A stretch of 64,000 bases of DNA. Origin: an uncultured Candidatus Saccharibacteria bacterium. Its GTDB lineage: Bacteria; Patescibacteriota; Minisyncoccia; Phycocordibacterales; UBA5272. The notes beneath the pieces were generated by a model, which saw nothing but the letters and a program-made list of their open reading frames with translations, did not search any database and was not told the DNA's origin. Position numbers and translations under genes: made by a program. This document shows positions 686 through 24,230 of the stretch, one piece after another. The stretch is from contig CAZEDG010000002.1 of the NCBI GenBank assembly GCA_964510805.1, positions 7,653-71,652 on the forward strand. Reading direction: 5' to 3'. Every line of letters starts with the position of its first letter. Position 1 is the stretch's first letter.

Positions 686-935
686 CAACCAAAAGGGCCA
701 GATGTTAGAAGTTAGACTTTAGATGTTAGAAAATACAGATAAGTTAATAGTTTGTAGTTAATGGTTAATTGTAGAGAAAGAGGAGTGAGGAGCAAAATAC
801 AAGTTAATAGTTTATGGTTAATAGTTACTGGTAAATACAGGAACACAAGAGCGAGGCCGAAGGCCTCGCTCGTGTGTGTGTTGTGTTTTTATCTAAACTC
901 TAAAGTCTAACTTCTAACATCTAGAGGCTACCTAG
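686..935. repeat. MITE-like palindromic intergenic element, copy E1. Inverted AT-rich arms at 694-716 and 908-932; central GC hairpin at 849-871.
   Basis: The arm agatgttagaagttagactttag is the reverse complement of ctaaagtctaacttctaacatctag. The centre is gagcgaggcc-gaag-ggcctcgctc. It also contains ttaatagttaatgg-type subrepeats. Confidence 0.8.
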
Positions 936-2688
936 TCTTCGCCTCTGCGACACCAATCACTGATTCTTTGAGTGCAACAATCACTGAAGTAAGTGATTGT
1001 TTTGCGCTATCTAGAATAGCACTGAAGTTAAGGTTAACCGCTGGTGGGGTGGCAGGGACAACATCGAATGAAAGACCTCCAACATCAGTGTCATAATCTT
1101 GTGTATGCAGAGTATGGCCAGGAAACCCATACCAGTAATAACTAAGTGTTTGTCGTGTACCAAGTGTATGAGTTCCCGCCGAAGCTGGTGCAGTTAAACT
1201 AAAACTAAATGGAAGAGTATATATATCACCAGAACCAACAAATGTCGGGGAACCGAGATTGCCAGTATTTACAAAAAATAATCCTGGAGGTGGGTTACCA
1301 GCATCAAATGTCGAATTATACGCACCATCACAGTCCCCTTCATCAGAACCTCCATAACCCGCATCTGTTTCGAGCAAAAGACTTCCTGATACTGTCATAG
1401 AATCTCCTGGAGCATAAGTTGGGTTCGTGCCGATAGATATTGTACACCAAAAAGAAATCTCACCCATTCTCCCCCATGTCGAAGAATAAAGAGTAAGCGC
1501 CTCCCCCTTCCCCACCGACATCATACTCATCGCAAGGAAAAACATAGATACTGATGCAACCTTTGCAAGCTTGCCACCTGATACTTTGCGAATAATAAGT
1601 GAAGCGATAATGATAAGAGCAAGTACAGCAATAAGGATATACATAAGTGTTGTGTTATTAGATTGTGGAGTAACTTCTTTCTTAGCAACACGAATCACGG
1701 AGAAGTTATCGGTCTTCTGGTCGAGACGATTGTTATCTTTGTCAAAGAGAGCAAGCGTAATTGTACCCTCCTTACATGTCGCCTTAAGTGTATCTTCGAT
1801 CACAGGAGTATCAAGATCTTTGTGTCCTTGGCCACACGGTGCACCACTCTTGTCCTTAAGCGTATACGTTGCTTTTGACCCCTTAAAAGGAGAAGCTCGT
1901 ACTGTAGCAACAAGGTTGAGTCCGTCTTTACCTTCGGTAACAGCAAGACTCTTAATGATTCCGTATGCACCAGGAACAAATATGTTAGTAAGACTTGTCT
2001 CCTTGGTCTTCTCATCCTTCACTACGAACACTCCACGCTTCACATCACTCTTAAGTGTAAAAGTCTTAGTCTCTCCTTTCTTAACCGTTGTTGTAGCAGA
2101 GAGAAGCGCTGTAGGACTAAAGAGTGCTTCATACTCGGCATAAGAGATTGACGCATCAGCTTTGAAGGTACAGGTTACCTTAAGAGCATCTTTTACTTGA
2201 GCACAATCAATGATAGTGCTTGTATTCTTAGGAACAAGATCCTTTGCAAGAATAGACACAGAGTATCTAAGTCCAGCATCACTCTCAGCAACGAGAAGCA
2301 CTTGTACCTTAGACGCATTAAGAGGAGGAAGGGTGTAGGTAAAAGGCTTGTAGATCATCTCTCCTTCCTTAAGAGAAGGAACAATGCCAAGCCTCTCATA
2401 CGAAATCTGCTTATGGGTAGTCGTGTCCACAACCACAATACCGTACCCTATACCATTCTGCATTCCCATATTGCTCATGATATTGAATCCTCCAGTGTAG
2501 GTACCGTTGGATTCCTTGAAGGTAACATCAACCACACGTACATCAGCAATAACTGATACTTTTGTCTTAGACACCGCACCTGACGGTGGTTGAGGGGCTC
2601 TTGTTTGTTGTGCCGGCGCTTGCGCATACACAAACGATGTTGCTAATAATAGGTAGGTAGAAATAATAAAGGTTGTGGACTTTTTCAT
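928..2688 (-). CDS. Secreted/surface protein of unknown function, copy A (586 aa). It has a signal peptide and a central transmembrane segment.
   Basis: Long ORF. The N-terminus MKKSTTFIISTYLLLATSFVYAQAP looks like a signal peptide. It has a hydrophobic helix MYILIAVLALIIIASLIIRKV and a Gly/Ser/Thr-rich C-terminal domain. The + and - ORFs nested inside are shadow ORFs. Confidence 0.7.
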   Translation of the reverse strand: MKKSTTFIISTYLLLATSFVYAQAPAQQTRAPQPPSGAVSKTKVSVIADVRVVDVTFKESNGTYTGGFNIMSNMGMQNGIGYGIVVVDTTTHKQISYERLGIVPSLKEGEMIYKPFTYTLPPLNASKVQVLLVAESDAGLRYSVSILAKDLVPKNTSTIIDCAQVKDALKVTCTFKADASISYAEYEALFSPTALLSATTTVKKGETKTFTLKSDVKRGVFVVKDEKTKETSLTNIFVPGAYGIIKSLAVTEGKDGLNLVATVRASPFKGSKATYTLKDKSGAPCGQGHKDLDTPVIEDTLKATCKEGTITLALFDKDNNRLDQKTDNFSVIRVAKKEVTPQSNNTTLMYILIAVLALIIIASLIIRKVSGGKLAKVASVSMFFLAMSMMSVGKGEALTLYSSTWGRMGEISFWCTISIGTNPTYAPGDSMTVSGSLLLETDAGYGGSDEGDCDGAYNSTFDAGNPPPGLFFVNTGNLGSPTFVGSGDIYTLPFSFSLTAPASAGTHTLGTRQTLSYYWYGFPGHTLHTQDYDTDVGGLSFDVVPATPPAVNLNFSAILDSAKQSLTSVIVALKESVIGVAEAKTR

Positions 2689-2699
2689 ACTACTTAGTA

Positions 2700-2920
2700 T
2701 ATATGGAAGAAGATAAGATTAACGAGGAAGTTGTACACAGATGGTAATGAGAGTGAAGAATGAAGTTAAACTAGATGTTAGAAAAGCGGATAACAGACCG
2801 CTCCGCTACAGACAACAGATAATAGACAATACACACGAGCGAGGCCGAAGGCCTCGCTCGTGTGTGTGTTGTGTTTTTATCTAAACTCTAAAGTCTAACT
2901 TCTAACATCTAGAGGCTACC
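2700..2920. repeat. MITE-like element, copy E2. It has a variant left arm (acagataacag type). The hairpin at 2837-2859 and the right arm at 2896-2920 are identical to E1.
   Basis: gagcgaggccgaaggcctcgctc followed by ctaaactctaaagtctaacttctaacatctag is identical to 849-932. The left part carries a gcggataacagaccgc palindrome. Confidence 0.7.
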
Positions 2921-4676
2921 TAGTCTTCGCCTCTGCGACACCAATCACTGATTCTTTGAGTGCAACAATCACTGAAGTAAGTGATTGTTTTGCGCTATCT
3001 AGAATAGCACTGAAGTTAAGGTTAACCGCTGGTGGGGTGGCAGGGACAACATCGAATGAAAGACCTCCAACATCAGTGTCATAATCTTGTGTATGCAGAG
3101 TATGGCCAGGAAACCCATACCAGTAATAACTAAGTGTTTGTCGTGTACCAAGTGTATGAGTTCCCGCCGAAGCTGGTGCAGTTAAACTAAAACTAAATGG
3201 AAGAGTATATATATCACCAGAACCAACAAATGTCGGGGAACCGAGATTGCCAGTATTTACAAAAAATAATCCTGGAGGTGGGTTACCAGCATCAAATGTC
3301 GAATTATACGCACCATCACAGTCCCCTTCATCAGAACCTCCATAACCCGCATCTGTTTCGAGCAAAAGACTTCCTGATACTGTCATAGAATCTCCTGGAG
3401 CATAAGTTGGGTTCGTGCCGATAGATATTGTACACCAAAAAGAAATCTCACCCATTCTCCCCCATGTCGAAGAATAAAGAGTAAGCGCCTCCCCCTTCCC
3501 CACCGACATCATACTCATCGCAAGGAAAAACATAGATACTGATGCAACCTTTGCAAGCTTGCCACCTGATACTTTGCGAATAATAAGTGAAGCGATAATG
3601 ATAAGAGCAAGTACAGCAATAAGGATATACATAAGTGTTGTGTTATTAGATTGTGGAGTAACTTCTTTCTTAGCAACACGAATCACGGAGAAGTTATCGG
3701 TCTTCTGGTCGAGACGATTGTTATCTTTGTCAAAGAGAGCAAGCGTAATTGTACCCTCCTTACATGTCGCCTTAAGTGTATCTTCGATCACAGGAGTATC
3801 AAGATCTTTGTGTCCTTGGCCACACGGTGCACCACTCTTGTCCTTAAGCGTATACGTTGCTTTTGACCCCTTAAAAGGAGAAGCTCGTACTGTAGCAACA
3901 AGGTTGAGTCCGTCTTTACCTTCGGTAACAGCAAGACTCTTAATGATTCCGTATGCACCAGGAACAAATATGTTAGTAAGACTTGTCTCCTTGGTCTTCT
4001 CATCCTTCACTACGAACACTCCACGCTTCACATCACTCTTAAGTGTAAAAGTCTTAGTCTCTCCTTTCTTAACCGTTGTTGTAGCAGAGAGAAGCGCTGT
4101 AGGACTAAAGAGTGCTTCATACTCGGCATAAGAGATTGACGCATCAGCTTTGAAGGTACAGGTTACCTTAAGAGCATCTTTTACTTGAGCACAATCAATG
4201 ATAGTGCTTGTATTCTTAGGAACAAGATCCTTTGCAAGAATAGACACAGAGTATCTAAGTCCAGCATCACTCTCAGCAACGAGAAGCACTTGTACCTTAG
4301 ACGCATTAAGAGGAGGAAGGGTGTAGGTAAAAGGCTTGTAGATCATCTCTCCTTCCTTAAGAGAAGGAACAATGCCAAGCCTCTCATACGAAATCTGCTT
4401 ATGGGTAGTCGTGTCCACAACCACAATACCGTACCCTATACCATTCTGCATTCCCATATTGCTCATGATATTGAATCCTCCAGTGTAGGTACCGTTGGAT
4501 TCCTTGAAGGTAACATCAACCACACGTACATCAGCAATAACTGATACTTTTGTCTTAGACACCGCACCTGACGGTGGTTGAGGGGCTCTTGTTTGTTGTG
4601 CCGGCGCTTGCGCATACACAAACGATGTTGCTAATAATAGGTAGGTAGAAATAATAAAGGTTGTGGACTTTTTCAT
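2916..4676 (-). CDS. Secreted/surface protein, copy B. It is 100% identical to the protein encoded at 928..2688.
   Basis: The ORF-track translation is identical over all 586 aa. Nucleotides 2837-4733 are identical to 849-2745. Confidence 0.7.
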   Translation of the reverse strand: MKKSTTFIISTYLLLATSFVYAQAPAQQTRAPQPPSGAVSKTKVSVIADVRVVDVTFKESNGTYTGGFNIMSNMGMQNGIGYGIVVVDTTTHKQISYERLGIVPSLKEGEMIYKPFTYTLPPLNASKVQVLLVAESDAGLRYSVSILAKDLVPKNTSTIIDCAQVKDALKVTCTFKADASISYAEYEALFSPTALLSATTTVKKGETKTFTLKSDVKRGVFVVKDEKTKETSLTNIFVPGAYGIIKSLAVTEGKDGLNLVATVRASPFKGSKATYTLKDKSGAPCGQGHKDLDTPVIEDTLKATCKEGTITLALFDKDNNRLDQKTDNFSVIRVAKKEVTPQSNNTTLMYILIAVLALIIIASLIIRKVSGGKLAKVASVSMFFLAMSMMSVGKGEALTLYSSTWGRMGEISFWCTISIGTNPTYAPGDSMTVSGSLLLETDAGYGGSDEGDCDGAYNSTFDAGNPPPGLFFVNTGNLGSPTFVGSGDIYTLPFSFSLTAPASAGTHTLGTRQTLSYYWYGFPGHTLHTQDYDTDVGGLSFDVVPATPPAVNLNFSAILDSAKQSLTSVIVALKESVIGVAEAKTR

Positions 4677-4739
4677 ACTACTTAGTATATATGGAAGAAG
4701 ATAAGATTAACGAGGAAGTTGTACACAGATGGAAGGAGG

Positions 4740-4852
4740 TAACTAGATGTTAGATATTAGATATTAGACTTTAGATATTAGAAAATACAGATAAGTTAAT
4801 AGTTAATAGTAAACACAAGAACACAAGAGCGAGGCTGTAGGCCTCGCTCTTT
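4740..4852. repeat. MITE-like element, copy E3. This is a half element: a left arm and a hairpin with a tgta loop, with no right arm.
   Basis: ctagatgttagatattagatattagactttagatattagaaaatac ... gagcgaggctgtaggcctcgctc at 4827-4849. Confidence 0.65.
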
Positions 4853-5122
4853 GAAGTTAAGAAACCAGAGGGCTTGCCTCTCTGTTTCAATCGGGATTAA
4901 CCCATTTGTATTCTCAGTATATATCTTACAAGGTATTTGTCGAATTACTATTCTTCTCCTATTTTATCTTCTCCTATTTTAAAATAGTTTTCATAATATC
5001 GAGATTAAGTAAAAAAGCCCCCAACGAAGACGGAACTTCATAAGGGTCTTTTTCGTAGTGATGTAGGTAGTATACACCTATTTAGAAATAAAAAAGGATA
5101 TTCCACATGCTACAATAAAAAT

Positions 5123-5617
5123 ATGAAAAATAACTATGCTTTTATAGATAGTCAAAATGTTTATCTTTCTGTAAAAGAACAAGGGTGGCAAATAGACTGG
5201 AAAAAATTTCGTATTTATTTACGTTTTAAATATAATATTTCAAAAGCATATTTATGTATTGGTTATATTGAAGGTAATAGTGATCTTTACAAAGAATTAC
5301 AAGAAGCTGGTTTTATTTGTATTTGGAAAACAGTTTTAAAATATAAAGATGGAATGATTAAAGGAAATGTAGACGCAGAACTAGTTCTTAATACTATGAT
5401 TGAAAAAGATAATTTCAACAAGGCTGTTATTATTTCTGGTGATGGAGATTTTTTTTGTTTAATTGAACACCTTCTAAAAATAAATAAACTAGAAAAATTA
5501 CTTATACCTAACAAACAAAAATATTCTGCACTTCTTAAAAGAAAAGATATACGTGGTCACACAGACTTTATAAGTGATTTAAAAAATAAAATCGGCAATA
5601 CTAGAGCTAAAAAATAA
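5123..5617 (+). CDS. NYN-domain (LabA/NYN PIN-like) putative ribonuclease.
   Basis: FIDSQNVY ... GNVDAELVLNTM ... ISGDGDF follows the NYN/LabA acidic-residue pattern. The region is very AT-rich (about 28% GC) compared with its neighbours. Confidence 0.6.
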   Translation: MKNNYAFIDSQNVYLSVKEQGWQIDWKKFRIYLRFKYNISKAYLCIGYIEGNSDLYKELQEAGFICIWKTVLKYKDGMIKGNVDAELVLNTMIEKDNFNKAVIISGDGDFFCLIEHLLKINKLEKLLIPNKQKYSALLKRKDIRGHTDFISDLKNKIGNTRAKK

Positions 5618-5621
5618 AAAA

Positions 5622-5658
5622 AGGACCTTTCAGGCATATCATGCGTCCTGAAAGGTTA
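5622..5658 (+). terminator. Intrinsic terminator hairpin after the NYN gene.
   Basis: ggacctttcagg-catatcatgcgt-cctgaaaggt followed by tatcctttt. Confidence 0.55.
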
Positions 5659-5763
5659 TCCTTTTCGTTGGTGATATGTAAAGTATATCTAAATATAAAA
5701 CAATGTCAAGAATTACAAAACATAGAGAACATAAGAAGTCGACAAAAGCGTTAAGAAAAGCAC

Positions 5764-5792
5764 TTGACAAAACAAAAGGATTCGTGTATAAT
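5764..5792 (+). promoter_or_regulatory. Perfect sigma70 consensus promoter: TTGACA, 17-nt spacer, TATAAT.
   Basis: ttgaca at 5764-5769, a 17-nt spacer, and tataat at 5787-5792. It lies about 135 nt upstream of the GC-rich lipoprotein ATG at 5927, which has the SD gaaaggagg. Confidence 0.6.
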
Positions 5793-10910: not shown

Positions 10911-10954
10911 GGCTAGTAATTCGTTATTAGTTATTCGTAATTAGTAAATACTAA

Positions 10955-11240
10955 TATAACAAAAGAGCGAGGCCTTCGGCCTCGCTCTTGTGTTATATTC
11001 TGCATTTTATCTTCATTCTTCATGCTTCATTCCTCTTTCTCTACCATTAACCATTAACTATAAACTATTAACCTTGTATTTTGCTCTTCATTCTTCATGC
11101 TTCATTCCTCTTTCTCTACCATTTACCATTCACTATAAACTCTTAACTTATCCGTATTTTCTAATCTCTAAAGTCTAACGTCTAATATCTAGTGTCTAGT
11201 GTCTAACCTCTAATATCTAAAGTCTAATATCTAGTCTTCC
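10955..11240. repeat. MITE-like element, copy E4, in opposite orientation (cttc loop). It has an internal tandem duplication of about 65 bp and an extended right arm.
   Basis: Hairpin gagcgaggccttcggcctcgctc at 10965-10987. Two tandem copies of cattcttcatgcttcattcctctttctctaccattaaccattaactataaactattaacc at about 11022-11150. ctaaagtctaacgtctaatatctag-type repeats at 11168-11235. Confidence 0.75.
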
Positions 11241-12528: not shown

Positions 12529-15189
12529 GTGCAACTTAACTCAGAAGTAGCTTTACTTTCAAGACTAACCAAAGATCATGCATCTGGTCTTGCTCGTCTT
12601 TCGATTACCACAATCAAGGATTTGCTTTTTCACTTTCCTGTTCGTTATGCTGACATGCGAGAGATTGGAAGTACAAAGACACTTGCAAAAGGAGAAGCGG
12701 TTACACTCTTTGGCATACTCGAGAAGGTCACCGTCAAGCGAAGCTTCCGTGGCCATATTCCCATGACCGAAGCCAGGCTTCGTGATGCATCAGGAACACT
12801 TCGTCTTGTATGGTTCAACCAAGCCTACATTGGCAAGATGTACACCGATGATACAAAAGTAAAGATTCAAGGCATTATCCAAGAAGACTCGCGAGGATTC
12901 TTCTTGACCAACCCTAGCATAGAAAAGATACAAGCAATCCCAGAGCCAACTGAGAGTCTCTTTACAATAGATATAAGCGAAGACGGAAAATCAAAAGAAC
13001 AAGAACCTCTCTTCCTCACCCCTGTCTATCCAGAAACAAAAGGAGTTTCTTCGCTCTACCTCTACACACTTATCAAAAAAATTTTTACAAGTAATCTCAT
13101 AGACACACTAGAGGATCCAATACCAGAGGATATTCTCAAGAAGCTTCATCTTCCATCACTCAAAGATGCTCTCACGTATATACATTTTCCTAAAGAGCAC
13201 ACTCATACAGTTATAGCGAGAAAGCGATTTGCCTTCGAGGAGATCTTCTACCTTCAGATAAAACAAAACAAAGAAAAACAGGAAGCAAAGAACTCTCTTG
13301 CGTATCCAATCACTGTACAAAAAAAAGAGCTGAAGGAATTCATGGAGAGGTTTCCTTTTACACCAACACAGGGGCAATATAACGCAATTGACTCCATACT
13401 CTCTGATCTCAAGAAGACCGAGCCAATGGGAAGACTTCTTGAAGGAGATGTTGGAAGTGGCAAGACATTCGTCGCTGCGACTGTTGCATATATGACACTC
13501 CTTCATGCAAATGAAAGCTCTGGTAAGAGACTTCAGGTTGCTTACATGGCACCAACTGAGATACTCGCCAAGCAACACTTCGAGAGCTTCATAACCTATC
13601 TCCAGGGTACCGGTATCGAGATCGGACTTCTCACAGGATCCGGGTGCAAAAAATACCCAAGCAAAGGAGGAGATGAAGTAACCAATATATCAAAAGCACA
13701 GCTTCGCACATGGCTTCATGATGGCCGTGTCTCTATCGTCATAGGTACTCATGCGCTTATCCAAAAGACAATTACCTTCGACTCTCTCGCGCTCATCATT
13801 ATCGATGAACAGCATCGCTTCGGTGTTAAGCAACGTAAACTCTTAGCGCAGAAAGGACGCAGAAATAACGCAGAACAAGCGGAACAAGTAGAAGAATATA
13901 ACCATACTCTTCTTGATGAAAAAAAATCCAATCTTCTCTATGAGACTACAACATATACATTACGCGAAGCATTGTTTACAATAAAAAAAGAACTAGGCGG
14001 TGGCCACAAAGAGATAATCTACGAAAGAGCACTTGAAGAAGAACTAACACGAAAAGGAATACGTTTTTCTCGTCAAGTATCTCTACCTGTCCTATATCGT
14101 GATAAGCAAATTGGAACCTATAGACCTGACTTTATCATTGAAGATAGTATAATTCTTGAATTAAAAGCATTATCTTTTATTGGAGCAGAAGCAAAAAAAC
14201 AACTTTGGACTTATCTAAAAAATACAAAATATTCACTTGGTATTTTAGTGAACTTTTCTCCTACAGAATTACAAATTCAAAGAGTTGTGTACGACACAGC
14301 AAGAACTTCTTCCGCGTCAGTTCCGCCCAGTTCTGCGGTGTCTGCATATAAAATCCCTCACCTTCTCTCAATGACCGCAACACCTATTCCACGCACACTT
14401 GCGCTCACCATGTTCGGGGATCTTGATCTTACTGTGCTTGATGAAGTGCCAAAGGAACGCAAGCGTATCATAACCGAAATTGTACGATCATCTAAACGAA
14501 AAGAAATCTACGAAAAAGTGCGCGAAGAGTTACGAAGTGGTCGCCAAGTGTATGTTATTTGTCCACGTATCGAAGAGGATGACGAAGCGCTTGCAGATAA
14601 GCAAATGCTACGAAGTGTAAAAGAAGAAGCAAAGCGATTAAGTGATACTGTCTTCCCAGAATATGTGATCGATATCCTTCACAGCAAAATGAAGAAAGAA
14701 GAAAAAGAAGAAGTGATGCAAGATTTTCTTGATAAAAAATCAGATATCTTAGTTGCAACCTCAGTGGTTGAAGTTGGAGTGAATGTGCCGAATGCTTCTG
14801 TGATTATTATCGAGCACGCTGACCGCTTCGGCCTTGCACAGCTTCATCAGTTACGTGGTCGCGTCGGAAGAGCAGAACATCAATCATACTGTTACCTCTT
14901 CACCGAAGGAGTAAGTGAAGTTACGTATAACAGACTTATCTCTTTAGTAAAAGCAAAGAACGGCTTCGAGTTAGCTGAGATGGACATGCTTGCACGCGGT
15001 ATCGGCACCTTAAATGATGGCAAGCAATGGGGGCTAAGTGACTTAGCAATGGAAGCAATCAAGAATCCTAAGCTTGTTGAGATTGCACAACAAGAAGCAA
15101 AGTTACTCATAGAAAAAGATACAAGTCTTAACAATCACCCTCACCTTCGCGACCACATCAAGACACACAGTGATGTGCATATGGAGTAG
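12529..15189 (+). CDS. recG: ATP-dependent DNA helicase RecG carrying an in-frame GxxExxY-family PD-(D/E)XK domain insertion.
   Basis: LLFHFPVRYADM wedge-region motif. Helicase motif I GDVGSGKTFVA, motif II IIIDEQHRFG and motif III MTATPIPRTL. VATSVVEVGVNVP and QLRGRVGR are also present. An extra segment of about 167 aa lies between motifs II and III. Confidence 0.85.
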   Translation: MQLNSEVALLSRLTKDHASGLARLSITTIKDLLFHFPVRYADMREIGSTKTLAKGEAVTLFGILEKVTVKRSFRGHIPMTEARLRDASGTLRLVWFNQAYIGKMYTDDTKVKIQGIIQEDSRGFFLTNPSIEKIQAIPEPTESLFTIDISEDGKSKEQEPLFLTPVYPETKGVSSLYLYTLIKKIFTSNLIDTLEDPIPEDILKKLHLPSLKDALTYIHFPKEHTHTVIARKRFAFEEIFYLQIKQNKEKQEAKNSLAYPITVQKKELKEFMERFPFTPTQGQYNAIDSILSDLKKTEPMGRLLEGDVGSGKTFVAATVAYMTLLHANESSGKRLQVAYMAPTEILAKQHFESFITYLQGTGIEIGLLTGSGCKKYPSKGGDEVTNISKAQLRTWLHDGRVSIVIGTHALIQKTITFDSLALIIIDEQHRFGVKQRKLLAQKGRRNNAEQAEQVEEYNHTLLDEKKSNLLYETTTYTLREALFTIKKELGGGHKEIIYERALEEELTRKGIRFSRQVSLPVLYRDKQIGTYRPDFIIEDSIILELKALSFIGAEAKKQLWTYLKNTKYSLGILVNFSPTELQIQRVVYDTARTSSASVPPSSAVSAYKIPHLLSMTATPIPRTLALTMFGDLDLTVLDEVPKERKRIITEIVRSSKRKEIYEKVREELRSGRQVYVICPRIEEDDEALADKQMLRSVKEEAKRLSDTVFPEYVIDILHSKMKKEEKEEVMQDFLDKKSDILVATSVVEVGVNVPNASVIIIEHADRFGLAQLHQLRGRVGRAEHQSYCYLFTEGVSEVTYNRLISLVKAKNGFELAEMDMLARGIGTLNDGKQWGLSDLAMEAIKNPKLVEIAQQEAKLLIEKDTSLNNHPHLRDHIKTHSDVHME
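13950..14300 (+). other. GxxExxY (PDDEXK_3-like) nuclease-fold domain embedded in RecG.
   Basis: GGGHKEIIYERALEEELTRKGIRFSRQVSLPVLYRDKQIGTYRPDFIIEDSIILELKA...LGILVNF matches the GxxExxY family architecture: G-x-x-E-x-x-Y, then D...(D/E)xK. The segment is more AT-rich than the flanking recG sequence. Confidence 0.7.
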
Positions 15190-15194
15190 CTGGA

Positions 15195-15365
15195 AACTAG
15201 ATGTTAGATATTAGACTTTAGAGATTAGAAAACACGGATAAGTTAATGGTTAATAGTTAATGGTTAATAGTAAATACAAATACACAAAGAGCGAGGCCTT
15301 CGGCCTCGCTCTTGTATTTGTATTTTTATCTAGAGCCTAAAGTCTAATATCTAACATCTAGTTTA
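15195..15365. repeat. MITE-like element, copy E5. It is complete: left arm, hairpin at 15289-15311 and right arm at 15337-15361.
   Basis: ctagatgttagatattagactttagagattagaaaacac ... gagcgaggccttcggcctcgctc ... ctaaagtctaatatctaacatctag. Confidence 0.8.
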
Positions 15366-15419
15366 ACTTCACTCCTCATTCTCTACAATTAACCATTAAC
15401 TACTTTGTCGTACCTTATC

Positions 15420-15800
15420 CTCAAAGTGCATCCACCTGGACCAGGAACCTGCGGACCAGTCTTGTATACTAAGACGTATTTTTTATGCACTCCTGTCTTA
15501 TAAACATGGTGCGCCCACCTGGACTCGAACCAGGGACCAGTCGTGTATACTAAGTCGTATTTTGATTTCATTCGTACCTTATCCTCAAAGTGCATCCACC
15601 TGGACTCGAACCAGGGACCAGTCGTGTATAAGACGACGGCTCTACCAACTGAGCTATGGATGCACTTTGTTGACAATGTACTCATTTATCAAAATAAGAC
15701 GACGGCTCTACCAACAAAGCTTAGGCGCACTATGTTTATAATCCCCTCGTTTTCAAAAATAAGACGACGGCTCTATCTGCAAAACTTAAATCCAACAAAA
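15420..15800 (-). repeat. Cluster of partial tRNA copies around the tRNA above: two degenerate 3' halves and two degenerate 5' halves.
   Basis: 3'-half copies are at about 15430-15480 and 15505-15560; the latter reads ...CCTGGTTCGAGTCCAGGTGGGCGCACCA with an encoded CCA. 5'-half copies are at about 15700-15740 and 15755-15800 (aagacgacggctctacc...). ORFs 15389..15685 and 15543..15869 are artefacts of this array. Confidence 0.6.
15591..15663 (-). tRNA. tRNA with anticodon UAU (predicted tRNA-Ile, AUA-decoding; tentative isotype).
   Basis: The reverse complement folds as acceptor GCATCCA/TGGATGC, D-arm GCTC-AGTTGGTA-GAGC, anticodon stem GTCGT/ACGAC with loop CTTATAC, variable loop TGGTC, and T-arm CCTGG-TTCGAGT-CCAGG, with discriminator A. 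No CCA is encoded. Confidence 0.55.
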
Positions 15801-15987
15801 CCTTACAATCCTCACTCACAGAAAAGTAGTATATCAAAAAACAGCGTCTTTTTCTACATGAGCGACTAAACCAAATACCAACTTAAAAAATGCAGTTCTT
15901 CAGAGTCTATTGCAAAACTCTACAAAACCTTTATCATAGAAAGAGTCACCTCATACGAAGGTGATACAACACACTCAGGAGCAAGCA

Positions 15988-16212
15988 ATGGCAAAGAACT
16001 TGACCGCAGGAGATTCCTGCGATCGATTCCCTGGAGATATGCGCCAACTCATTCGAGAACAGGTGCGCTCACGGAACACCGAAGGAGTGCACGGCGGAAG
16101 CCATCTCTCGGACCATCGAGCCGTCGGCGCATCAACAAGTCCTGAAGACCGTGAGGCACTCAACCGCTTCATGGACCTCTCTTCAGGAAACAACCCTTGC
16201 TCACTGATGTGA
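15988..16212 (+). CDS. Small GC-rich ORF (75 aa) or structured small RNA of foreign composition. Coding status is uncertain.
   Basis: About 55-57% GC over about 250 bp in a genome below 40% GC. SD caggag is 6 nt before the ATG at 15988. A terminator ccccgcccc-acaa-gggcgg followed by ttctttat lies at about 16207-16235. Confidence 0.3.
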   Translation: MAKNLTAGDSCDRFPGDMRQLIREQVRSRNTEGVHGGSHLSDHRAVGASTSPEDREALNRFMDLSSGNNPCSLM

Positions 16213-16227
16213 GCAACACCCCGCCCC

Positions 16228-16440
16228 ACAAGGGCGGTTCTTTATATGACAGTTGCTAGTAAATAGTTACTAGTTAATAGTAAAAGAACACAAGAGCGAG
16301 GCCGAAGGCCTCGCTCTCTGTATTGATGCCCACCATTAACCATTAACTATAAACTATTAACCTGTATTTTGCTCTTCACTCTTTACACCTCATTCTTCAC
16401 TCTCTTCCTAACGTCTAATATCTAGTGTCTACCCCTACAC
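16228..16440. repeat. MITE-like element, copy E6.
   Basis: Hairpin gagcgaggccgaaggcctcgctc at 16294-16316. ccaccattaaccattaactataaactattaacc subrepeat. Right arm ctaacgtctaatatctagtgtctac. Confidence 0.75.
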
Positions 16441-18865: not shown

Positions 18866-18959
18866 AAATTCTTTACATCTGGTGTATGTTTTAGGGCTAA
18901 ACCATTCGCGGGCCCATGGCGAATGGTCGCCCGAACATTTTGGTTACAAAATGTTTTAG

Positions 18960-19351
18960 GGGGGGTGTACTTTGGCTTTGATAATAAGAATATGTCTTGT
19001 GTGCTGTATCGAGATCGCCTAAGCACTCGTTAACGTTTAGGTACCCATGTTGCAAAAACAACTGGCAAGGCTATTCCTTCACCATATATGGCAGGAATGG
19101 TTCCAGCATTCGCCTAAATTACTGGCCAATCTGGTGTCTCCTTCTATCGTATCTACGGATAGATTGTAGGCAATATAACAGTAGAGGTAGATTATCTTGT
19201 TGCATAGCAAAATAATCGAAATAATTATGCTATACCTATGATGCTTTTGTTTGCTTCTGATATCATGGCGCGAAACACACTAAGCAAACTATATACAGTA
19301 GAAACATTCTTCATACCTTGTTACACGCGGGTTCGAATCCCGCCACCTCCA
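18960..19351 (+). ncRNA. ssrA: tmRNA (SsrA).
   Basis: 5' GGGGGTG pairs with 3' CACCTCC and includes the G3:U wobble. The 3' tRNA-like end is GCGGGTTCGAATCCCGCCACCTCCA. An internal reading frame ...GKAIPSPYMAGMVPAFA-TAA at 19064-19117 is the putative tag, with a possible GCA resume codon at 19052. No CCA is encoded. ORF 18997..19215 is spurious. Confidence 0.8.
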
Positions 19352-19354
19352 CTG

Positions 19355-19408
19355 CTTCGCTAAAATCCGGATGAGCCTCTTAGGCTCATCCGGATTTTAG
19401 CTTCGCAG
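19355..19408 (+). terminator. Long perfect hairpin terminator after ssrA.
   Basis: gctaaaatccggatgagcc-tctta-ggctcatccggattttagc. Confidence 0.6.
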
Positions 19409-19555
19409 TGCGCGCACCGTAGATACGAACACAAAGACAAGGCCTCTTGAGAAATAAAAATCAAAACTAAAAGAAGCGGTGGACCCTGCGTAGCTTTACG
19501 CGAAGTATGGGCGGGTCCTGCGTAGCTTTAGCGAAGCAGGGTATATACTTACCTT

Positions 19556-19795
19556 ATGTACTATGTCTATATCTTACTAAGTCAGAAAGACAGCAGTCGA
19601 TATGTTGGAACAACAGAAGATTTAAAGAAGAGAATTAAGGAACATAATTCTGGCAATTCAAAGTATTCAAGCAGTAAAATGCCTTATATTTTGAAATGGT
19701 ACTGTGCATTTGATAATAAAGAAATGGCTTATAAATTTGAAAGATATCTTAAACAAGGGTCTGGCCATGCATTTACAAGTAAACACTTGATTTAA
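19556..19795 (+). CDS. GIY-YIG nuclease-domain protein (small, stand-alone).
   Basis: YYVYILLSQKDSSRYVGTTEDLKKRIKEH fits GIY...YIG with a following R...H/N. It is AT-rich. Confidence 0.6.
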   Translation: MYYVYILLSQKDSSRYVGTTEDLKKRIKEHNSGNSKYSSSKMPYILKWYCAFDNKEMAYKFERYLKQGSGHAFTSKHLI

Positions 19796-19936
19796 AGTAA
19801 GCCACATTTGTGACCGACTCTAGTGATTCGAACGAAAACATGCTCGCATCTTTGCTTCAAAAAAATATCTTCTACACTTATGTATTAAGCAACGGACAAA
19901 AAGAAAGGCCGTCACTTAGACGGCCTGGCGACAAAT

Positions 19937-20323
19937 TCAGTCATCCTGATCTTCAAGATCTTTGTCTGCCTGATCTGAGCAATAAGAGCGAACCACCACT
20001 CCGCCAGAAATAAAAACTTTTGGCTCTCTCGCTTTTTTTGCTTCCTCTGATTGTAAGTAGCGTCTTCCGTCAATCACAAAAAGCCTTCCTCTGTTCTTGT
20101 ATCTCTGATCCCTTGGATCCTTGAAAAAAGCTTCTGATAAAGCTTCACCACAACGAACCAGCTCATGTGAAAAGTGAAACTTCGGCTCTTCGGCACGAGG
20201 CGTAAAGTCTGGATTCCTTGCCCCAGTAGGAAGATACTGATCAAAATAATCTCTAATTGTTGGCCAGTTCTTAGGAAAGACAATACGAGTACCTTGACCT
20301 GTTTGGAAACGTTGAACGTACAT
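19937..20323 (-). CDS. Hypothetical protein.
   Basis: The ORF is 128 aa with no recognised motif. Confidence 0.4.
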   Translation of the reverse strand: MYVQRFQTGQGTRIVFPKNWPTIRDYFDQYLPTGARNPDFTPRAEEPKFHFSHELVRCGEALSEAFFKDPRDQRYKNRGRLFVIDGRRYLQSEEAKKAREPKVFISGGVVVRSYCSDQADKDLEDQDD

Positions 20324-20403
20324 GATACTTTCCTTTTCTTAAAAAAGCAGAATGAGCTTAGAAACGTCTACAATTATTTAACAAAAAATATAATTTGTCA
20401 AAT

Positions 20404-21162
20404 TTACCTCACCCTCTCCTCTTTAAGAACCACATTAAGTGTGCACTCTATACTCTTCGCGTCTTTTGGGGAAACTCCTTCTAGAACCGTCTCACTCTGA
20501 TACACATGATTCTTGTCATAGCTCAATTCACAAGACTCATTAAGAATAGAAAAAGTTTCTGGGTCAGCACCTTGTATTACAGTAGCATCAGCGTCCCCTC
20601 TTTTTGCAGAAATAATATATACCTGATGAGCATCAAGGCTATATTTTTTACTCAACACTTTAAAAGAGTTAGCATCAGAATGCGGAAGTATATCTTTTTT
20701 ATAAAAAACACTTGTTGCATCCTTTATAAAAGCACCAGTAGTCGAAGCAAGTGTAGAAGGATTGGCCAACACTTCATCAAGCGACCAATTACCGTCACGA
20801 TAGCGTTCATAATAAAACACACGATCTTTATCCTTATAATACCCAGAAAGAAAAGGTACCGCAGTAAACGTCGCGACATCGATAGAACTAGAAGCAACTC
20901 TATACCCTACACCACAAGAAGAAGTGAGAGACCCGAGAACTTTTTTACAATGAAAAAGCGTGCTACTGCTTTTACTGAAAAACTGATCAATAGTTGTCAC
21001 GTCTTCTTGCTCACTCTGATCTTCTGTAAGACTACTTGAACTTGCTTCTTCTAGAACGGAAGGTTTTTTGGATAGTTGCTCATGTATGCTATTTTTATTA
21101 TGAGTCAACAAAAGTGGTACAGTAAGCAAAAGAAAAAGGAGAAAAGGAACAGTGTACTTCAT
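20404..21162 (-). CDS. Secreted DKNYY-repeat protein.
   Basis: Signal peptide MKYTVPFLLFLLLTVPLLL. Repeated motifs YKDKDRVFYY, SVFYKKD, HQVYII and YDKNHVYQ. Confidence 0.5.
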   Translation of the reverse strand: MKYTVPFLLFLLLTVPLLLTHNKNSIHEQLSKKPSVLEEASSSSLTEDQSEQEDVTTIDQFFSKSSSTLFHCKKVLGSLTSSCGVGYRVASSSIDVATFTAVPFLSGYYKDKDRVFYYERYRDGNWSLDEVLANPSTLASTTGAFIKDATSVFYKKDILPHSDANSFKVLSKKYSLDAHQVYIISAKRGDADATVIQGADPETFSILNESCELSYDKNHVYQSETVLEGVSPKDAKSIECTLNVVLKEERVR

Positions 21163-21297
21163 GCAAATAAGTATACATCGATGTCGTGATTTTTTTGTAT
21201 ATCTTGTTATACTATGCTTGCTTTTTACATAAGTAGAGAGTTCTGTAATTCTAAGATACTATAAGAACTTATAAATATTTTGGTTACAAAATAATAT

Positions 21298-21900
21298 AGG
21301 GAGAAATGGCTGAGTGGGTCAAACGTAAACTGCTTTACGTTTAACGATAAGCATGAAGAGCTCTTCATGCGCAATCCGGCAAACACGAAGCCATTGTTCC
21401 GTAGGACGACAAATAGTCCCGAAGTAGTGCAAGGACTTATATTTGGAGAAATGGCTGAGTGGTTGAAGGCACCTGACTCGAAATCAGGCATAGGAGCAAT
21501 CCTATCGTGGGTTCAAATCCCACTTTCTCCGCAGATTGATACGCAGTGAAAATCTGCGGAGAAAGTGGTGCCATGCTCACAAGCATGGTACGTGGGATTT
21601 GAACGAAACGCCGGTCTACGAAAATGAGATGTAAAAATTGAGTGCAGTATTTTTACATCTCATTTTTGTCGACGTTTCTCGGGGTCGAGAAGTTGAGTGT
21701 TTTCTGAACAACAACGTTGTAAAAGAAAATACCAACTTGGTGACCAATCCCACTTTCTCCGCAAAATAATGAATCTGAAGCGAATGCTTCAGATGATTAT
21801 ATTTTGCGAGAGAAAGTGGGATTTGAACTGAGTCCGATGCGAAGCCGGTGTATGTCCTCATACATCGTGAGGACGAGGCTTAGGCGAAAGTTAAGAGTGT
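21298..21900. repeat. Array of partial copies of tRNA-Ser ends in both orientations around the intact tRNA-Ser.
   Basis: A 5'-end copy ggagaaatggctgagtgggtcaaacg at 21302-21327 carries a hairpin gcatgaagagctcttcatgc. The inverted T-arm copy gtgggatttgaac is at about 21590. A 3'-end copy aatcccactttctccgca is at about 21748. The inverted copy gagagaaagtgggatttgaactgagtcc is at about 21810. Confidence 0.6.
21445..21531 (+). tRNA. tRNA-Ser (anticodon CGA).
   Basis: GGAGAAA-TG-GCTG-AGTGGTTGAA-GGCA-CCTGACTCGAAATCAGG, a long variable arm, T-arm GTGGGTTCAAATCCCAC, acceptor TTTCTCC and discriminator G. Confidence 0.8.
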
Positions 21901-22057
21901 TTTTATGATGGTAAGCTTGTCGAACCAGAAATAAAAATACCTTAACAATCGACAAATCCTACTTTCTCACCATAGACAAAAACCAATTCTATTTGCTTCC
22001 CTTACTTAAGTATGGTATTGTATAGCTACACTATTATCACTATTTAAAAAACATCCC

Positions 22058-22570
22058 TTGGCAGAAAAAGTAAACATCAACAACAATATTCGTTCACCTA
22101 AGCTTCGTGTCATCGGAGCAAATGGAGACAATCTTGGCGTACTCACAAAAGAAGAAGCGCTCGAGCGAGCAAAAAAATCAAGTCTTGATCTTATTGAGGT
22201 CTCCCCTCAAGCAGACCCTCCTGTTGCACGTATCGCAGACTACGGAAAGTATATTTATGAACTTTCAAAAAAACTTAAGGAAGTAAAGGCAAAATCACAC
22301 GTTACCGAGACAAAAACAATTCAGATAAGTGTCGCAATTGGAGAAAATGACATAATGATTAAGGCTAAACAGGCTGCTGAATGGATCAAAGAAGGTCATA
22401 GAGTGAAGATAGACCTCCAGCTCAAAGGAAGAACTAAGTACATGGACGAAGGCTTCCTTCGTGAACGCATGGATAGAATTCTTGCTATTATTCCTGCTGA
22501 ATACAAAATTGCAGAACCTCTCAAGAAAATACCAAAATCAATGATGGTGGTTATCGAAAAAGCCAAATAA
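22058..22570 (+). CDS. infC: Translation initiation factor IF-3.
   Basis: IRSPKLRVIGANGDNLGVLTKEEALERAKKSSLDLIEVSPQADPPVARIADYGKY is the IF3 N- and C-domain pattern. It is followed by rpmI-rplT. Confidence 0.85.
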   Translation: MAEKVNINNNIRSPKLRVIGANGDNLGVLTKEEALERAKKSSLDLIEVSPQADPPVARIADYGKYIYELSKKLKEVKAKSHVTETKTIQISVAIGENDIMIKAKQAAEWIKEGHRVKIDLQLKGRTKYMDEGFLRERMDRILAIIPAEYKIAEPLKKIPKSMMVVIEKAK

Positions 22571-22721
22571 TCTCCTAAATACACTACACTAGACAGAAAG
22601 CCAATAAATCTCCAGGTTTGGAAGGTAGTCCTACAAAGCCAATATCGCTTGATATTCTTAATAATCCATGATATAATACGCCAACTATCGTAAAGGCGGT
22701 ACATAAATTCGGAACATTTTT

Positions 22722-22910
22722 ATGAAGACAAATAAATCATTCCTCAAACGACTAAAAGTTACAAAAAACGGTAAGATTATCGCGCGCAAGCCAGGTCTTA
22801 ACCACTTCAACGCTAAGGCATCTCGCCGTAAGCAACTTGGTAATAAGCGTGGACAAGACTTCGCTATGACAGGCAAAGAAAAGTCTCGTTTCCTTCCAGG
22901 ACTTCTATAA
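22722..22910 (+). CDS. rpmI: 50S ribosomal protein L35.
   Basis: MKTNKSFLKRLKVTKNGKIIARKPG, 62 aa. Confidence 0.85.
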   Translation: MKTNKSFLKRLKVTKNGKIIARKPGLNHFNAKASRRKQLGNKRGQDFAMTGKEKSRFLPGLL

Positions 22911-22964
22911 AAAAGCGAATTTTGTATTTTCCTTTATTACTAAATTTTTAATTATACAACTACC

Positions 22965-23309
22965 ATGTCACGAGTTAAGAGAAGTTTAATTGCAATGAAG
23001 CATCGTCGTAATGTACTTAGACGTGCTAAAGGATATCGCTTCGGAAGAAGTAAGAAAGAAGTCGAAGCAAAAGTTGCACTTCGTCATGCGGGAGCTCATG
23101 CGTTCGCTCACCGTAAGGACAAGAAGACTGATATGCGTCGCCTCTTTACTGTGCGTCTTAATGCGGGACTTCGTGCACTCGGCATGTCATACAGTGTCTT
23201 TATTGATAAGCTCGCAAAGAAAAATATCATCATCAATCGCAAGATGCTCTCTGAGCTTGCACAAAGCAACCCAGAAACATTTGAGCGTATTGTTGCACAA
23301 GTGAAGTAA
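22965..23309 (+). CDS. rplT: 50S ribosomal protein L20.
   Basis: MSRVKRS...RRAKGYRFGRSK...RHAGAHAFAHRKDKK. Confidence 0.9.
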   Translation: MSRVKRSLIAMKHRRNVLRRAKGYRFGRSKKEVEAKVALRHAGAHAFAHRKDKKTDMRRLFTVRLNAGLRALGMSYSVFIDKLAKKNIIINRKMLSELAQSNPETFERIVAQVK

Positions 23310-23312
23310 AGG

Positions 23313-23470
23313 TATAGAGTTTAGATATTAGACTTTAGATTTTAGGTAAACATAAGAGCGAGGCCTACGGCCTCGCTCTTATGTTCTTGTATTTACTATT
23401 AACTATTAACTATAAACTATTAACTTATCTACATTTCCTAATACCTAAAATCTAACGTCTAACATCTAGT
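23313..23470. repeat. MITE-like element, copy E7, lying between convergent genes.
   Basis: gagtttagatattagactttagattttagg ... gagcgaggcc-tacg-gcctcgctc at 23356-23378 ... ctaaaatctaacgtctaacatctag. Confidence 0.8.
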
Positions 23471-24046
23471 TTACAGCCTCATCTCCCTTTCACCGCTTCC
23501 TTCTTGGTCTTGTACCATTTTGATAAGCTTCTCGACTAGCACCTTCGGATCTTTTTCAAAAATAACATTAGGGTTAGTTCTATTACTATTCTTAATAATA
23601 TCCTTAATCACTTCATCCGTGGTCCATTCACCTTCTAGAATACCAAGTGGCATATTTGCCTCCCATGCAACAGTAAACTCATGAATAGTTCCTATTCTCC
23701 CACACCCAATCACAATTGCATCAGAAGATCTTACTAACATAAGATCTCTTCCAGGGAACCCGAAGCCTGTATAGATAACAGTATCCATCGCCTTAAGAGG
23801 AAGCCTGTAGACTTCTAGGTGTTCTTTCTTGCTCGCAGCAGGAGAAAGGCCAAAAGAAAAACCCCCTGCCTCCTTAGCTCCTTCCGCTGCGTAGAGAGGG
23901 AATCCACTCGTTGCTCCTGTAATAATTTGTGCACCTTGTCGTGCTATCTCTCTCCCTAACTCTTTAGCAATTGGGATAACAGAAGGTCCACAGTGGGCGA
24001 TTTCTGCCGCGCCAGACACACTGATTGTTATTCTCGCTGATTTCAT
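23471..24046 (-). CDS. LOG/TIGR00725-family Rossmann-fold nucleotide-binding protein.
   Basis: GIGTIHEFTVAWEA fits the LOG PGGxGTxxE-like motif. The protein is 191 aa. Confidence 0.5.
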   Translation of the reverse strand: MKSARITISVSGAAEIAHCGPSVIPIAKELGREIARQGAQIITGATSGFPLYAAEGAKEAGGFSFGLSPAASKKEHLEVYRLPLKAMDTVIYTGFGFPGRDLMLVRSSDAIVIGCGRIGTIHEFTVAWEANMPLGILEGEWTTDEVIKDIIKNSNRTNPNVIFEKDPKVLVEKLIKMVQDQEGSGEREMRL

Positions 24047-24049
24047 TCC

Positions 24050-24230
24050 ACTAGTATATAAGTACTAGAAGATAGTTACTAGTGGACAGGGAACAAATAC
24101 AGACAACAGACTGCTTCGCTTACAGATAACAGAATATAGATAAATACAAGACAAAGAGCAAAACCTTCAACCTCACTTGTGTATTTGTCTGTTATCTGTC
24201 TATCTATGTTCTCTGGTCTAATTTAATCTA
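24050..24230. repeat. Degenerate MITE-like element, copy E8.
   Basis: agagcaaaaccttcaacctcacttgt is a degraded hairpin. It is flanked by the inverted pair caaatacagacaacagac / gtatttgtctgttatctgtc. Confidence 0.5.

Follow-up and report, generated by a model that had tools for sequence, protein, structure and literature searches.

Palindromic intergenic repeats with heptamer-array arms and predicted terminator hairpins in a Saccharibacteria-like chromosome

The 64-kb stretch analysed here (contig CAZEDG010000002.1; hereafter the window) belongs to a Saccharibacteria-like chromosome of the candidate phyla radiation (CPR), and eight of its loci, E1 to E8, are copies of one dispersed palindromic intergenic repeat. 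The copies are 110-320 bp long, lie within 24 kb and are built in three layers: mirrored outer arms of 7-nt units, A/T-rich inner arms and a GC-rich hairpin of 23 nt. We interpret them as intrinsic terminators, predicted to work in both directions, that are embedded in a palindromic repeat resembling either the intervening sequences (IVSs) of rRNA genes or the repetitive extragenic palindromes (REPs) and bacterial interspersed mosaic elements (BIMEs) of proteobacteria, and that would have spread by recombination. We put the probability of this combined reading at about one half.

The repeat family and its architecture

On the two strands of the window, whose base composition is 40% GC, GAGCGAGGCC was found 13 times, whereas 0.05 occurrences were expected and none of 100 shuffles reached 13. 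Paired with one another, these matches yield six perfect hairpins, each with a stem of 10 bp and a loop of 3 nt (Table 1). In the seventh core, that of E3, the first stem arm reads GAGCGAGGCT, leaving one G·U pair in the RNA, and E8 is a decayed eighth copy whose core remnant reads GAGCAAAACCTTCAACCTCACTT. The cores start with (A/C)GAGCGA at the 5' end. All eight copies lie within the first 24.3 kb; the scan of the window found no member of the GAGCGAGGCC family from 24.3 to 64 kb. A version of the core pattern with a 4-nt loop had no match in the window: every loop is 3 nt long and represents one of two alleles, GAA/TTC and GTA/TAC, each present in both orientations. The original prediction, an earlier reading of this DNA from its letters, had proposed a family of at least eight copies with a conserved GC hairpin. 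The count of GAGCGAGGCC and the homology beyond the stem bear this out, and the perfect 10-bp stem claimed for all copies holds for six of them, E3 having its G·U pair and E8 being decayed. The loop, described there as variable and 3-4 nt long, is not. We also do not follow the suggestion that loop variation together with stem conservation reflects selection on structure, as identical stems with only two loop alleles point to recent common descent.

E4, E7 and E8 were recovered base for base in independent assemblies from other samples (L046, L047, L170, L172-L174); therefore, the elements are not assembly artefacts. No open reading frame (ORF) of at least 30 amino acids is specific to the eight elements. 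A search of the window against Rfam at gathering thresholds returned only the transfer-messenger RNA (tmRNA) and two tRNAs, which places the elements outside all known RNA families.

Table 1 Positions and structure of the repeat elements and related features (window coordinates unless a locus is named)
Feature	Position	Strand	Structure	Context
E1	698-924		A heptamers (TAGANNT type), spacer, B (GTTAATR), reverse-complement C, B, inner arm, core 849-871 (GAA), inner arm, A'	3' of ORF586 copy 1 (928-2688, minus); 5' of minus-strand gene starting near 649
E2	2771-2912		one terminal A heptamer, E-type arm (ACAGAYA), core 2837-2859 (GAA), A' arm equal to that of E1; inner arms acacac/gtgtgt perfectly complementary	between the two ORF586 copies
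E3	4743-4851		half element: A arm, spacer, B, core 4827-4849 (GAGCGAGGCT GTA GGCCTCGCTC), no right arm	between divergent genes: ORF586 copy 2 and NYN-domain gene
E4	10914-11234		D heptamers (TAGTAAT/TCGTAAT), core 10965-10987 (TTC), C-B'-C-B', long A' arm	3' of 1303-aa CARDB-domain gene
E5	15197-15361		165 nt, most complete basic unit: A, spacer, B, inner arm, core 15289-15311 (TTC), inner arm, A'	between RecG stop codon (15189) and convergent tRNA cluster
E6	16251-16432		TAGTTAM heptamers, core 16294-16316 (GAA), B', C, short A' arm	between FtsH stop codon (16435-16437, minus) and older small hairpin 16221-16237
E7	23315-23469		A arm, core 23356-23378 (TAC), B', spacer, A' arm	fills gap between convergent L20 (plus) and LDcluster4 (minus)
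E8	24090-24215		decayed; core remnant 24156-24178, E-type arms on both sides; identical in strain L171	between co-directional beta-CASP and LDcluster4 genes; 3' of beta-CASP
1896-bp repeat	849-4732		starts at first core base; contains A' arm, ORF586 and its upstream region; minus strand	links E1-E3
Related architecture, different core	26843-26957		TAGTTAA-type heptamers 26843-26875, hairpin ACAAAAGCGACTTC-GTAA-GAAGTCGCTTTTGT 26921-26952	
16S rRNA insertions	L051 5618-5774; L079 from 306; L165; L147		CTAGATG/TTAGANN stems	unrelated metagenomic organisms
23S rRNA insertions	L090; L129; L140; L109		CTAGATG/TTAGANN stems	unrelated metagenomic organisms

The arms are arrays of tandem 7-nt units, and Tandem Repeats Finder reported a period of 7 (also 14, 21 and 28) at every element. 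We distinguished the unit types A (TAGATNT or TAGACTT), B (GTTAATR), C (TCTTCAT with a polypyrimidine tail), D (TAGTAAT or TCGTAAT) and E (ACAGAYA). The arms had previously been described as short AT-rich inverted units falling into two subfamilies; the units are tandem 7-nt repeats and comprise at least five types. In the window, the arm motif CTAACATCTAG occurred 12 times with at most one mismatch (1.4 expected) and TTAATAGTTAATGG 22 times with at most two mismatches (0.8 expected). Throughout the phased arrays TAG(A) is conserved, whereas the last positions of the unit vary.

An asymmetric stretch of about 160 nt (165 nt in E5, 155 nt in E7) forms the basic unit, in the order A arm, spacer, B block, inner arm of the ATACAAA/ACACAA type, core, inner arm and A' arm. 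One A arm is separated from the core by the B and C blocks; these lie left of the core in E1, E3 and E5 but right of it in E4, E6 and E7. Therefore, the unit is present in both orientations, as had been predicted. Individual copies depart from this plan: C-B'-C-B' in E4 is a 75-nt internal duplication and is followed by an A' arm of 10.6 heptamers, and E5 is accompanied by extra C and B' modules at 15362-15400. The termini, inconsistency of which would have spoken for simple terminators in the original prediction, are uniform, with ten element ends (four left, six right) reading CTAGATGTTAGA or its complement. Five copies can be aligned over about 80 nt of arm, a stretch that takes in the non-repetitive junction TTAGAAAATACAGATAAGTTAATAGTTT, and over the full length E7 is 79% identical to E5 and 80% identical to E1. 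The outer arms are 27-39 nt long and 87-93% complementary; in E5 the outer 28 bp are perfectly paired. Long hairpins are predicted for E5, E7 and E1 with z-scores of -12.0, -8.6 and -9.7, respectively. The elements are a genuine dispersed repeat family with defined ends, not terminators that share a chance motif. At 26843-26957, heptamers of another type accompany a hairpin with a different core, indicating that the design of heptamers plus terminator is not limited to the GAGCGAGGCC family.

Inside the arms, we counted 147 stop triplets reading inward and 93 reading outward, where composition predicts about 112. However, whichever way the arms are read, 12 of 13 have stops in all three frames, and the copies do not count as independent; the notion that the NTAGNNN units provide stops in three frames ahead of the hairpin is weak.

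The window is chromosomal, with genes for RecG, FtsH, SmpB (together with tmRNA), IF3-L35-L20, SSB, S6, several aminoacyl-tRNA synthetases, NusG and L11. Its FtsH is 84% identical to that of the Candidatus Saccharibacteria metagenome-assembled genome (MAG) CAZNVC01 and its NusG 73.5% identical to that of the Saccharibacteria MAG CAYZZT01. Seven of the eight copies directly follow a stop codon, namely that of an ORF586 copy (E1 and E2), the CARDB gene (E4), RecG (E5), FtsH (E6), L20 (E7) or the beta-CASP gene (E8). E5 and E7 lie between convergent genes, and so does E6 if the 83-aa ORF at 15961-16212 is real. The elements had been said to sit always at gene 3' ends, sometimes between convergent genes; this is right for these seven and for E5 and E7, but E3 lies between divergent genes.

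E1 to E3 are linked by a perfect tandem repeat of 1896 bp, in which 849-2744 and 2837-4732 are 100% identical. The three left arms bordering the copies of this repeat are all different, and the repeat starts at a core; therefore, the cores are recombination (or assembly) junctions. The repeat may be real, having arisen by recombination between cores, or may be an artefact of assembly, since such repeats are seldom resolved in metagenome assemblies. The ORF that it carries, ORF586, encodes 586 amino acids with a signal peptide and a membrane segment and has no Pfam match; it looks like a putative secreted or surface protein. Being flanked by elements and duplicated in tandem, it was considered as a hidden transposase, which we rejected on account of these three features.

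Turnover at orthologous sites and wider distribution

In relatives whose FtsH is about 85% identical, orthologous positions are likewise occupied by hairpins of this design, which differ in sequence and have a 3-nt GAA/TTC loop, an A-tract and a T-tract. At the 3' end of RecG, relative L043 has ggcaaaatacaaacGAGCGAGGTCgaaGACCTCGCTCgtttgtattttgcc, with one compensatory pair relative to the window (GAGCGAGGTCgaaGACCTCGCTC) and no A arms. The gap between L20 and LDcluster4 is occupied in L044 by TTAGCNN heptamers followed by TAAATACAAAA and then by GCGCGACC-gaa-GGTCGCGC (hairpin aaaaGCGCGACCgaaGGTCGCGCtttt). At the 3' end of FtsH, L176 has a GAACGGCCGC-GAA hairpin in the place of E6, upstream of the same small older hairpin, and L043 has TAGTAGN heptamers with GTGGAAGC-aaa-GCTTCCAC. 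In L044 and L177 only a plain terminator is found where the window carries GAGCGAGGCC; in L044 this sole terminator is a small hairpin of the kind found at 16221-16237 beside E6. Hairpin covariation derived from a search for perfect palindromes is ascertainment-biased, so that sites defined by synteny alone are fair evidence, and the only relatively unbiased compensatory changes are those at orthologous sites in relatives.

Within a genome, one core and one heptamer flavour are common to many sites. The window combines TTAGANN with GAGCGAGGCC, CAZNVC01 combines TTAGGGA with GAGCGAGGCC, and CAYZZT01 has GTAGTGA with GAGCGAGGCC and, in addition, a compensated variant, GAGCGAGACC; L044 and L175 have AGCTNNN heptamers. 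This genome-specific pattern indicates either concerted evolution or repeated recolonisation of terminator sites. Differences were also found among close strains. As far as the stop codon of L20, L048 matches the window at 99.4% identity; from there on it has an E-type arm in place of the A-type arm. In L171, the flanking gene matches at 99.5% identity and E8 is identical, but the arm differs at about 7 of 40 positions and has one more heptamer. The contigs L047 and L048 end inside an element, as a multi-copy repeat predicts. The different stems of the relatives and the arm swap in L048 indicate that the copies evolve in concert and turn over quickly.

Outside this group, the exact stem pair was found in 41 stretches of a species-representative genome set, about a dozen of them in low-GC CPR genomes. 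These matches of a 10-bp stem across phyla are probably for the most part due to chance among terminator hairpins, many of them in high-GC genomes. Exceptions are the Saccharibacteria relatives CAZNVC01 and CAYZZT01, where the stem is multi-copy and flanked by heptamers. The A-arm pattern CTAGATGTTAGANNTTAGANNTTAG occurred in at least 120 stretches from metagenomes of many environments, on contigs with a GC content from 28% to 67%. Among the matches listed, an inverted partner tract lay within 400 nt downstream in 29 of 103 usable cases and upstream in 2 of 104; therefore, the orientation of the arms, with CTAG outward, is fixed. As NTAGANN heptamer tracts in many unrelated organisms, the arms are not private terminal inverted repeats (TIRs) of the window elements.

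Several of the metagenome palindromes are insertions in helix 6 of 16S rRNA, with the arms and a central GC hairpin placed between gcaagtcgaacgg and agtggcggacggg, whereas insertions in 23S rRNA with A-type arms enclose IVP/bAvd-like ORFs (Table 1). Heptamer tracts also adjoin tRNAs within rRNA operons at metagenome loci. A BLAST search of plasmids with E5 gave only trivial matches to the B tract (Borreliella, Phaeobacter). We found no paper in the literature on such elements in Saccharibacteria/Patescibacteria (CPR) or on the arm sequences. A cyanobacterial origin of the heptamers is unlikely, as HIP1 (GCGATCGC) is absent from the window.

The window elements, the heptamer-stemmed IVSs of 16S and 23S rRNA and the tRNA-adjacent tracts of rRNA operons might represent one cross-phylum class of self-propagating hairpin elements that spread without a conventional transposase, a speculative proposal that we consider rather unlikely. 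Such a class would colonise sites that tolerate a long RNA hairpin, such as terminators, variable tips of rRNA helices and tRNA flanks. The NTAGANN arrays could then be the recognition module of a recombination or repair pathway acting on palindromes, or of an RNA-mediated step.

At four loci from higher-GC organisms (L054, L074, L086 and L089) the heptamer palindrome ends directly at CCTCCTT, which places AAGGAGG, a ribosome-binding site, right after the element on the other strand. This arrangement recalls the TAACTGA repeats of Beggiatoaceae, which lie just upstream of start codons.

Proposed function and competing explanations

In a consensus scan, the cores of E1-E7 were the top-ranked terminator-like sites, and those of E2, E4 and E5 were called on both strands. 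The flanks of the core are A-rich on one side and T-rich on the other, from which terminator action in either direction is predicted. The earlier view that the elements are probably bidirectional terminators is thus supported as a prediction: the cores are the strongest terminator-like sites, several of them are called on both strands, and seven of eight copies follow stop codons. The assignment as putative bidirectional terminators is drawn from the sequence, from the position and from the plain terminators found at the same sites in relatives. The decayed core of E8 is the only one of its kind, and it sits between two co-directional genes.

Relative to the consensus on the plus strand, the E8 core at 24156-24178 carries six G-to-A changes and one C-to-T change, with 6 of 8 G positions altered. 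Such an asymmetry between the strands would be consistent with deamination of cytosines in the opposite strand.

From these data we infer termination, RNase III cleavage and a recombination mechanism, as follows. The core with its flanks would act as an intrinsic terminator for transcripts arriving from either side. A terminated transcript would contain one arm only, and the heptamer arms would pair solely in read-through RNA, where they could form a duplex of 30-60 bp of the kind that RNase III removes from rRNA precursors. By analogy, cleavage of the arm duplex by RNase III could be a second safeguard, cutting read-through and antisense RNA where genes are tightly packed. Recombination or gene conversion among the copies would keep those of one genome alike and pass them between strains, while the 7-nt units would slip and the palindrome become more symmetric, adding further change; a transposase encoded nearby would play no part in the spread. 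Recombination or gene conversion is suggested by the concerted evolution, the arm swaps, the duplication bounded by cores, and the failure to find a transposase or target-site duplications.

Several points weigh against this interpretation. Both termination and RNase III cleavage are deduced from the letters of the DNA, the U-tracts are interrupted (for example UUGUGUUAU and GUGUGUGUGUUGUG), and E3 does not lie at a gene 3' end. Consistent termini and a fixed arm orientation would be expected from a transposable element with defined ends, and an arm swap bounded exactly at unique flanking sequence is hard to obtain by gene conversion. The window covers 64 kb of the genome, and a transposase could lie elsewhere. 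Finally, the perfect 1.9-kb repeat could be an assembly artefact.

It is possible, though clearly less probable than recombination-borne terminators, that the elements are true miniature inverted-repeat transposable elements (MITEs) or resemble REPINs (REP doublets), moved in trans by a transposase or a REP-associated tyrosine transposase (RAYT) encoded elsewhere, which inserts them by preference just after stop codons or at terminators, the terminator activity being a by-product. Such an origin would account for the consistent termini at 10 element ends, for the asymmetric basic unit of about 160 nt in both orientations, and for the A...A' orientation that is fixed in unrelated metagenomes (29/103 versus 2/104 among the matches listed). 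It would also account for the differences in presence and absence among relatives at the FtsH and RecG sites, for the switch of arm type in a 99.4%-identical strain, whose boundary falls exactly at the stop codon of L20, and for the breaks of contigs L047 and L048 inside elements. Transposition fits better than gene conversion in three respects: the termini are consistent, the orientation is fixed, and the arm swap ends exactly at unique sequence.

Pfam detected no transposase, integrase or RAYT (Y1_Tnp) domain in about 50 ORFs of the window, in agreement with the original prediction that no transposase is present there. No target-site duplication was found in the flanks (e.g. ggaaa/tttaac for E5 and agggc/aggct for E1), although the palindromic terminal CTAG or TA could hide one, and none was evident in the flanks of the palindromic units at metagenome loci. 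Among 118 arm occurrences in the matches listed, no A...A' pair 0.4-4 kb apart enclosed a transposase; the single pair at this distance belongs to an rRNA operon, with an IVP-type ORF between the two arms. Of the checks that had been proposed with the original prediction, the one for target-site duplications showed none beyond the palindromic terminal CTAG, which could hide one, and no transposase with TIRs matching the arms was found in the window or among these 118 occurrences. In addition, the cores lack the GT[AG]G head of REPs, the copies are only about 80% identical with a module content that differs at nearly every copy, and orthologous sites keep an element over genus-level divergence even as its core sequence changes. 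The label MITE-like is apt in that the elements are dispersed, small and non-coding and have consistent termini, but no target-site duplication is visible and no autonomous parent was found in the window or among the matches listed; their design is closer to that of rRNA IVSs than to a miniature transposon of the classical kind.

We consider it unlikely that the elements act primarily at the DNA level, with cruciforms or folds of single-stranded DNA and phased NTAGANN arrays binding a nucleoid, replication or recombination protein and with terminator features being secondary. The stems are perfect over 10-28 bp, which is beyond the need of termination, the phased 7-nt arrays combine a conserved TAG(A) with variable last positions, the heptamer type is genome-specific at all sites as if co-evolving with a binder acting in trans, and the cores coincide with a recombination junction. 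However, we identified no candidate binding protein, and the same arms occur inside rRNA genes, where they are necessarily transcribed and removed as RNA. Furthermore, the positions follow gene 3' ends and not a pattern related to replication, and in E8, between co-directional genes, the core decayed while the arms persist. That the loci are unrelated simple terminators sharing a GC-rich stem by chance is refuted for practical purposes: it is true that 41 stretches, spread over many phyla, have the identical 20-base stem pair, that most of these resemble ordinary terminators, and that many come from high-GC genomes, in which a chance match is more likely, but 13 occurrences against 0.05 expected in 64 kb of 40% GC DNA, homology reaching about 80 nt past the stem with non-repetitive junctions included, and 79-80% full-length identity between copies make such a coincidence extremely improbable.

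Integron attC sites were considered and rejected as well. GTTAGAT/ATCTAAC fits the degenerate GTTRRRY consensus, but the outer stems (27-39 nt, 87-93% complementary) have no bulged L box, the elements are surrounded by housekeeping genes of either orientation, and none of the approximately 50 ORFs of the window encodes an integrase.

Comparison with known repeats and neighbouring features

We compared the elements with the known systems closest to them. The REP, BIME and REPIN repeats of proteobacteria are likewise short GC-rich extragenic palindromes that are mostly found after genes, form locus-specific mosaics with other short motifs and larger hairpins, have a role as terminators or stabilisers of mRNA 3' ends and are recombination points. 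With its 23 nt and its arms, the core is, like a REP, a multi-copy extragenic palindrome of 20-40 nt that forms larger hairpins. The palindrome of REPs carries the conserved tetranucleotide GT[AG]G at its 5' end, whereas the window cores start with (A/C)GAGCGA instead of GTAG or GTGG, and no RAYT was found in the scanned window ORFs. Further differences from REPs and BIMEs are the mosaic partners, which here are tandem 7-nt arrays, and the host, a CPR bacterium with a small genome.

With bacterial MITEs (Correia/NEMIS of Neisseria, RUP and BOX of pneumococcus, Nezha of cyanobacteria), the elements share a size of 100-300 bp, multi-copy intergenic and non-coding nature, TIRs with consistent ends, both orientations and the ability to supply terminators. 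In contrast to these MITEs, they have no demonstrable target-site duplication, and no parent insertion sequence with matching ends was found; their arms are heptamer microsatellites common to unrelated organisms, and they occupy the same sites across genus-level divergence.

The IVS in helix 45 of the 23S rRNA of Coxiella burnetii has a 28-bp terminal stem and a strain-variable number of tandem GACAGAT heptamers, is cut by RNase III at the first repeat, and is of unresolved origin (PMC4990558). Long terminal inverted repeats, a stem of about 28 bp and tandem heptamers are common to rRNA IVSs and the window elements; GACAGAT resembles the E-type unit ACAGAYA, and the A-type arm motif is identical in the stems of metagenomic 16S and 23S IVSs. 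We also counted as a likeness that rRNA IVSs are regarded as selfish, their mobility being unknown. The window copies differ in lying between protein-coding genes, in a window that has no rRNA gene, and in carrying a terminator hairpin instead of an IVP (S23p) ORF; RNase III cleavage is proposed for them by analogy only.

STRRs (short tandemly repeated repetitive sequences) are said, going by the title of a 1997 paper by Vioque, to lie inside RNase P RNA genes of cyanobacteria. These sequences and the TAACTGA repeats are, like the arms described here, intergenic tandem 7-nt units that occur as several types per genome, have a patchy phylogeny and frequently break assemblies. Their unit sequences are different, and they do not form mirrored arms around a hairpin at gene 3' ends but direct arrays upstream of start codons. 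Intergenic heptamer arrays of TAACTGA repeats, of unknown function, are present in Beggiatoaceae, Cyanobacteria and Bacteroidetes (PMC4679880). By class, the elements are intergenic palindromic mosaic repeats of a CPR bacterium with heptamer-array arms; they would work like REP/BIME mosaics and terminator-bearing MITEs and are built like rRNA IVSs.

Heptamer tandem repeats of the STRR and TAACTGA types and rRNA IVSs are old puzzles, widespread and patchy, with no accepted function or mode of spread. The locus described here unites heptamer arms, an IVS-like design and a terminator hairpin. It does so in a very small genome, of a kind from which DNA without use is normally lost, and the strain-level variants and orthologous sites of the locus can be compared directly. 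Our interpretation predicts two-way termination at the core, cutting of the read-through arm duplex by RNase III and concerted evolution of the arms within a genome. In practical terms, the arms cause assembly breaks in metagenome bins of CPR bacteria and can be used as a marker. If it is true that the elements move without a transposase, this would be a new mechanism of propagation.

Several other features of the window were recorded. The tmRNA gene (18961-19354) is directly followed by a palindrome at 19350-19410 with 29-nt arms, 90% complementary, and a 3-nt loop; relative L175 has a similar hairpin with a 20-bp stem at 1706-1748, downstream of SmpB. It looks like a long conserved stem for the termination or processing of tmRNA.

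On the minus strand at 15405-15800, an intact tRNA-Ile(UAU) (15663-15590) with a 25-nt leader-trailer stem is nested in the anticodon loop of a second tRNA-Ile, whose 5' half lies at about 15741-15694 and whose 3' half at about 15560-15514. The halves of this second tRNA have matching acceptor and leader/trailer sequences, and a third, degenerate pair of halves lies outside them. In L043 (4190-4560) the outer tRNA halves are perfect (GCGCCCA.../...TGGGCGC), the 3' half equals that of the window over 46 nt, and the spacers are about 80% identical. The arrangement could be a still-functional split or nested tRNA, or debris from integration sites. Downstream of tRNA-Ser(CGA) (21445-21531) there are direct and inverted copies of its 3' end (21551-21568, 21728-21770 and 21810-21828) and small unannotated ORFs; the region (21445-21830) looks like remnants of integration at the tRNA gene.

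RecG (12529-15189) contains an in-frame PD-(D/E)XK domain (PF13366, PDDEXK_3) at residues 474-586, between the helicase lobes. This insert is present in L044, L175 and L176 and absent from L043, whose RecG has 717 amino acids. A gene of the IVP/bAvd type (PF05635) lies just upstream of RecG in L044, L175 and L176; the window ORF at this position has no homology to it. The PF13366 and PF05635 families are typical cargo of rRNA IVSs. The isoleucyl-tRNA synthetase (37176-40685, 1169 aa), with a histidine-phosphatase domain (PF00300) inserted at residues 524-679, is, after RecG, the second housekeeping enzyme of the window with a foreign domain insertion.

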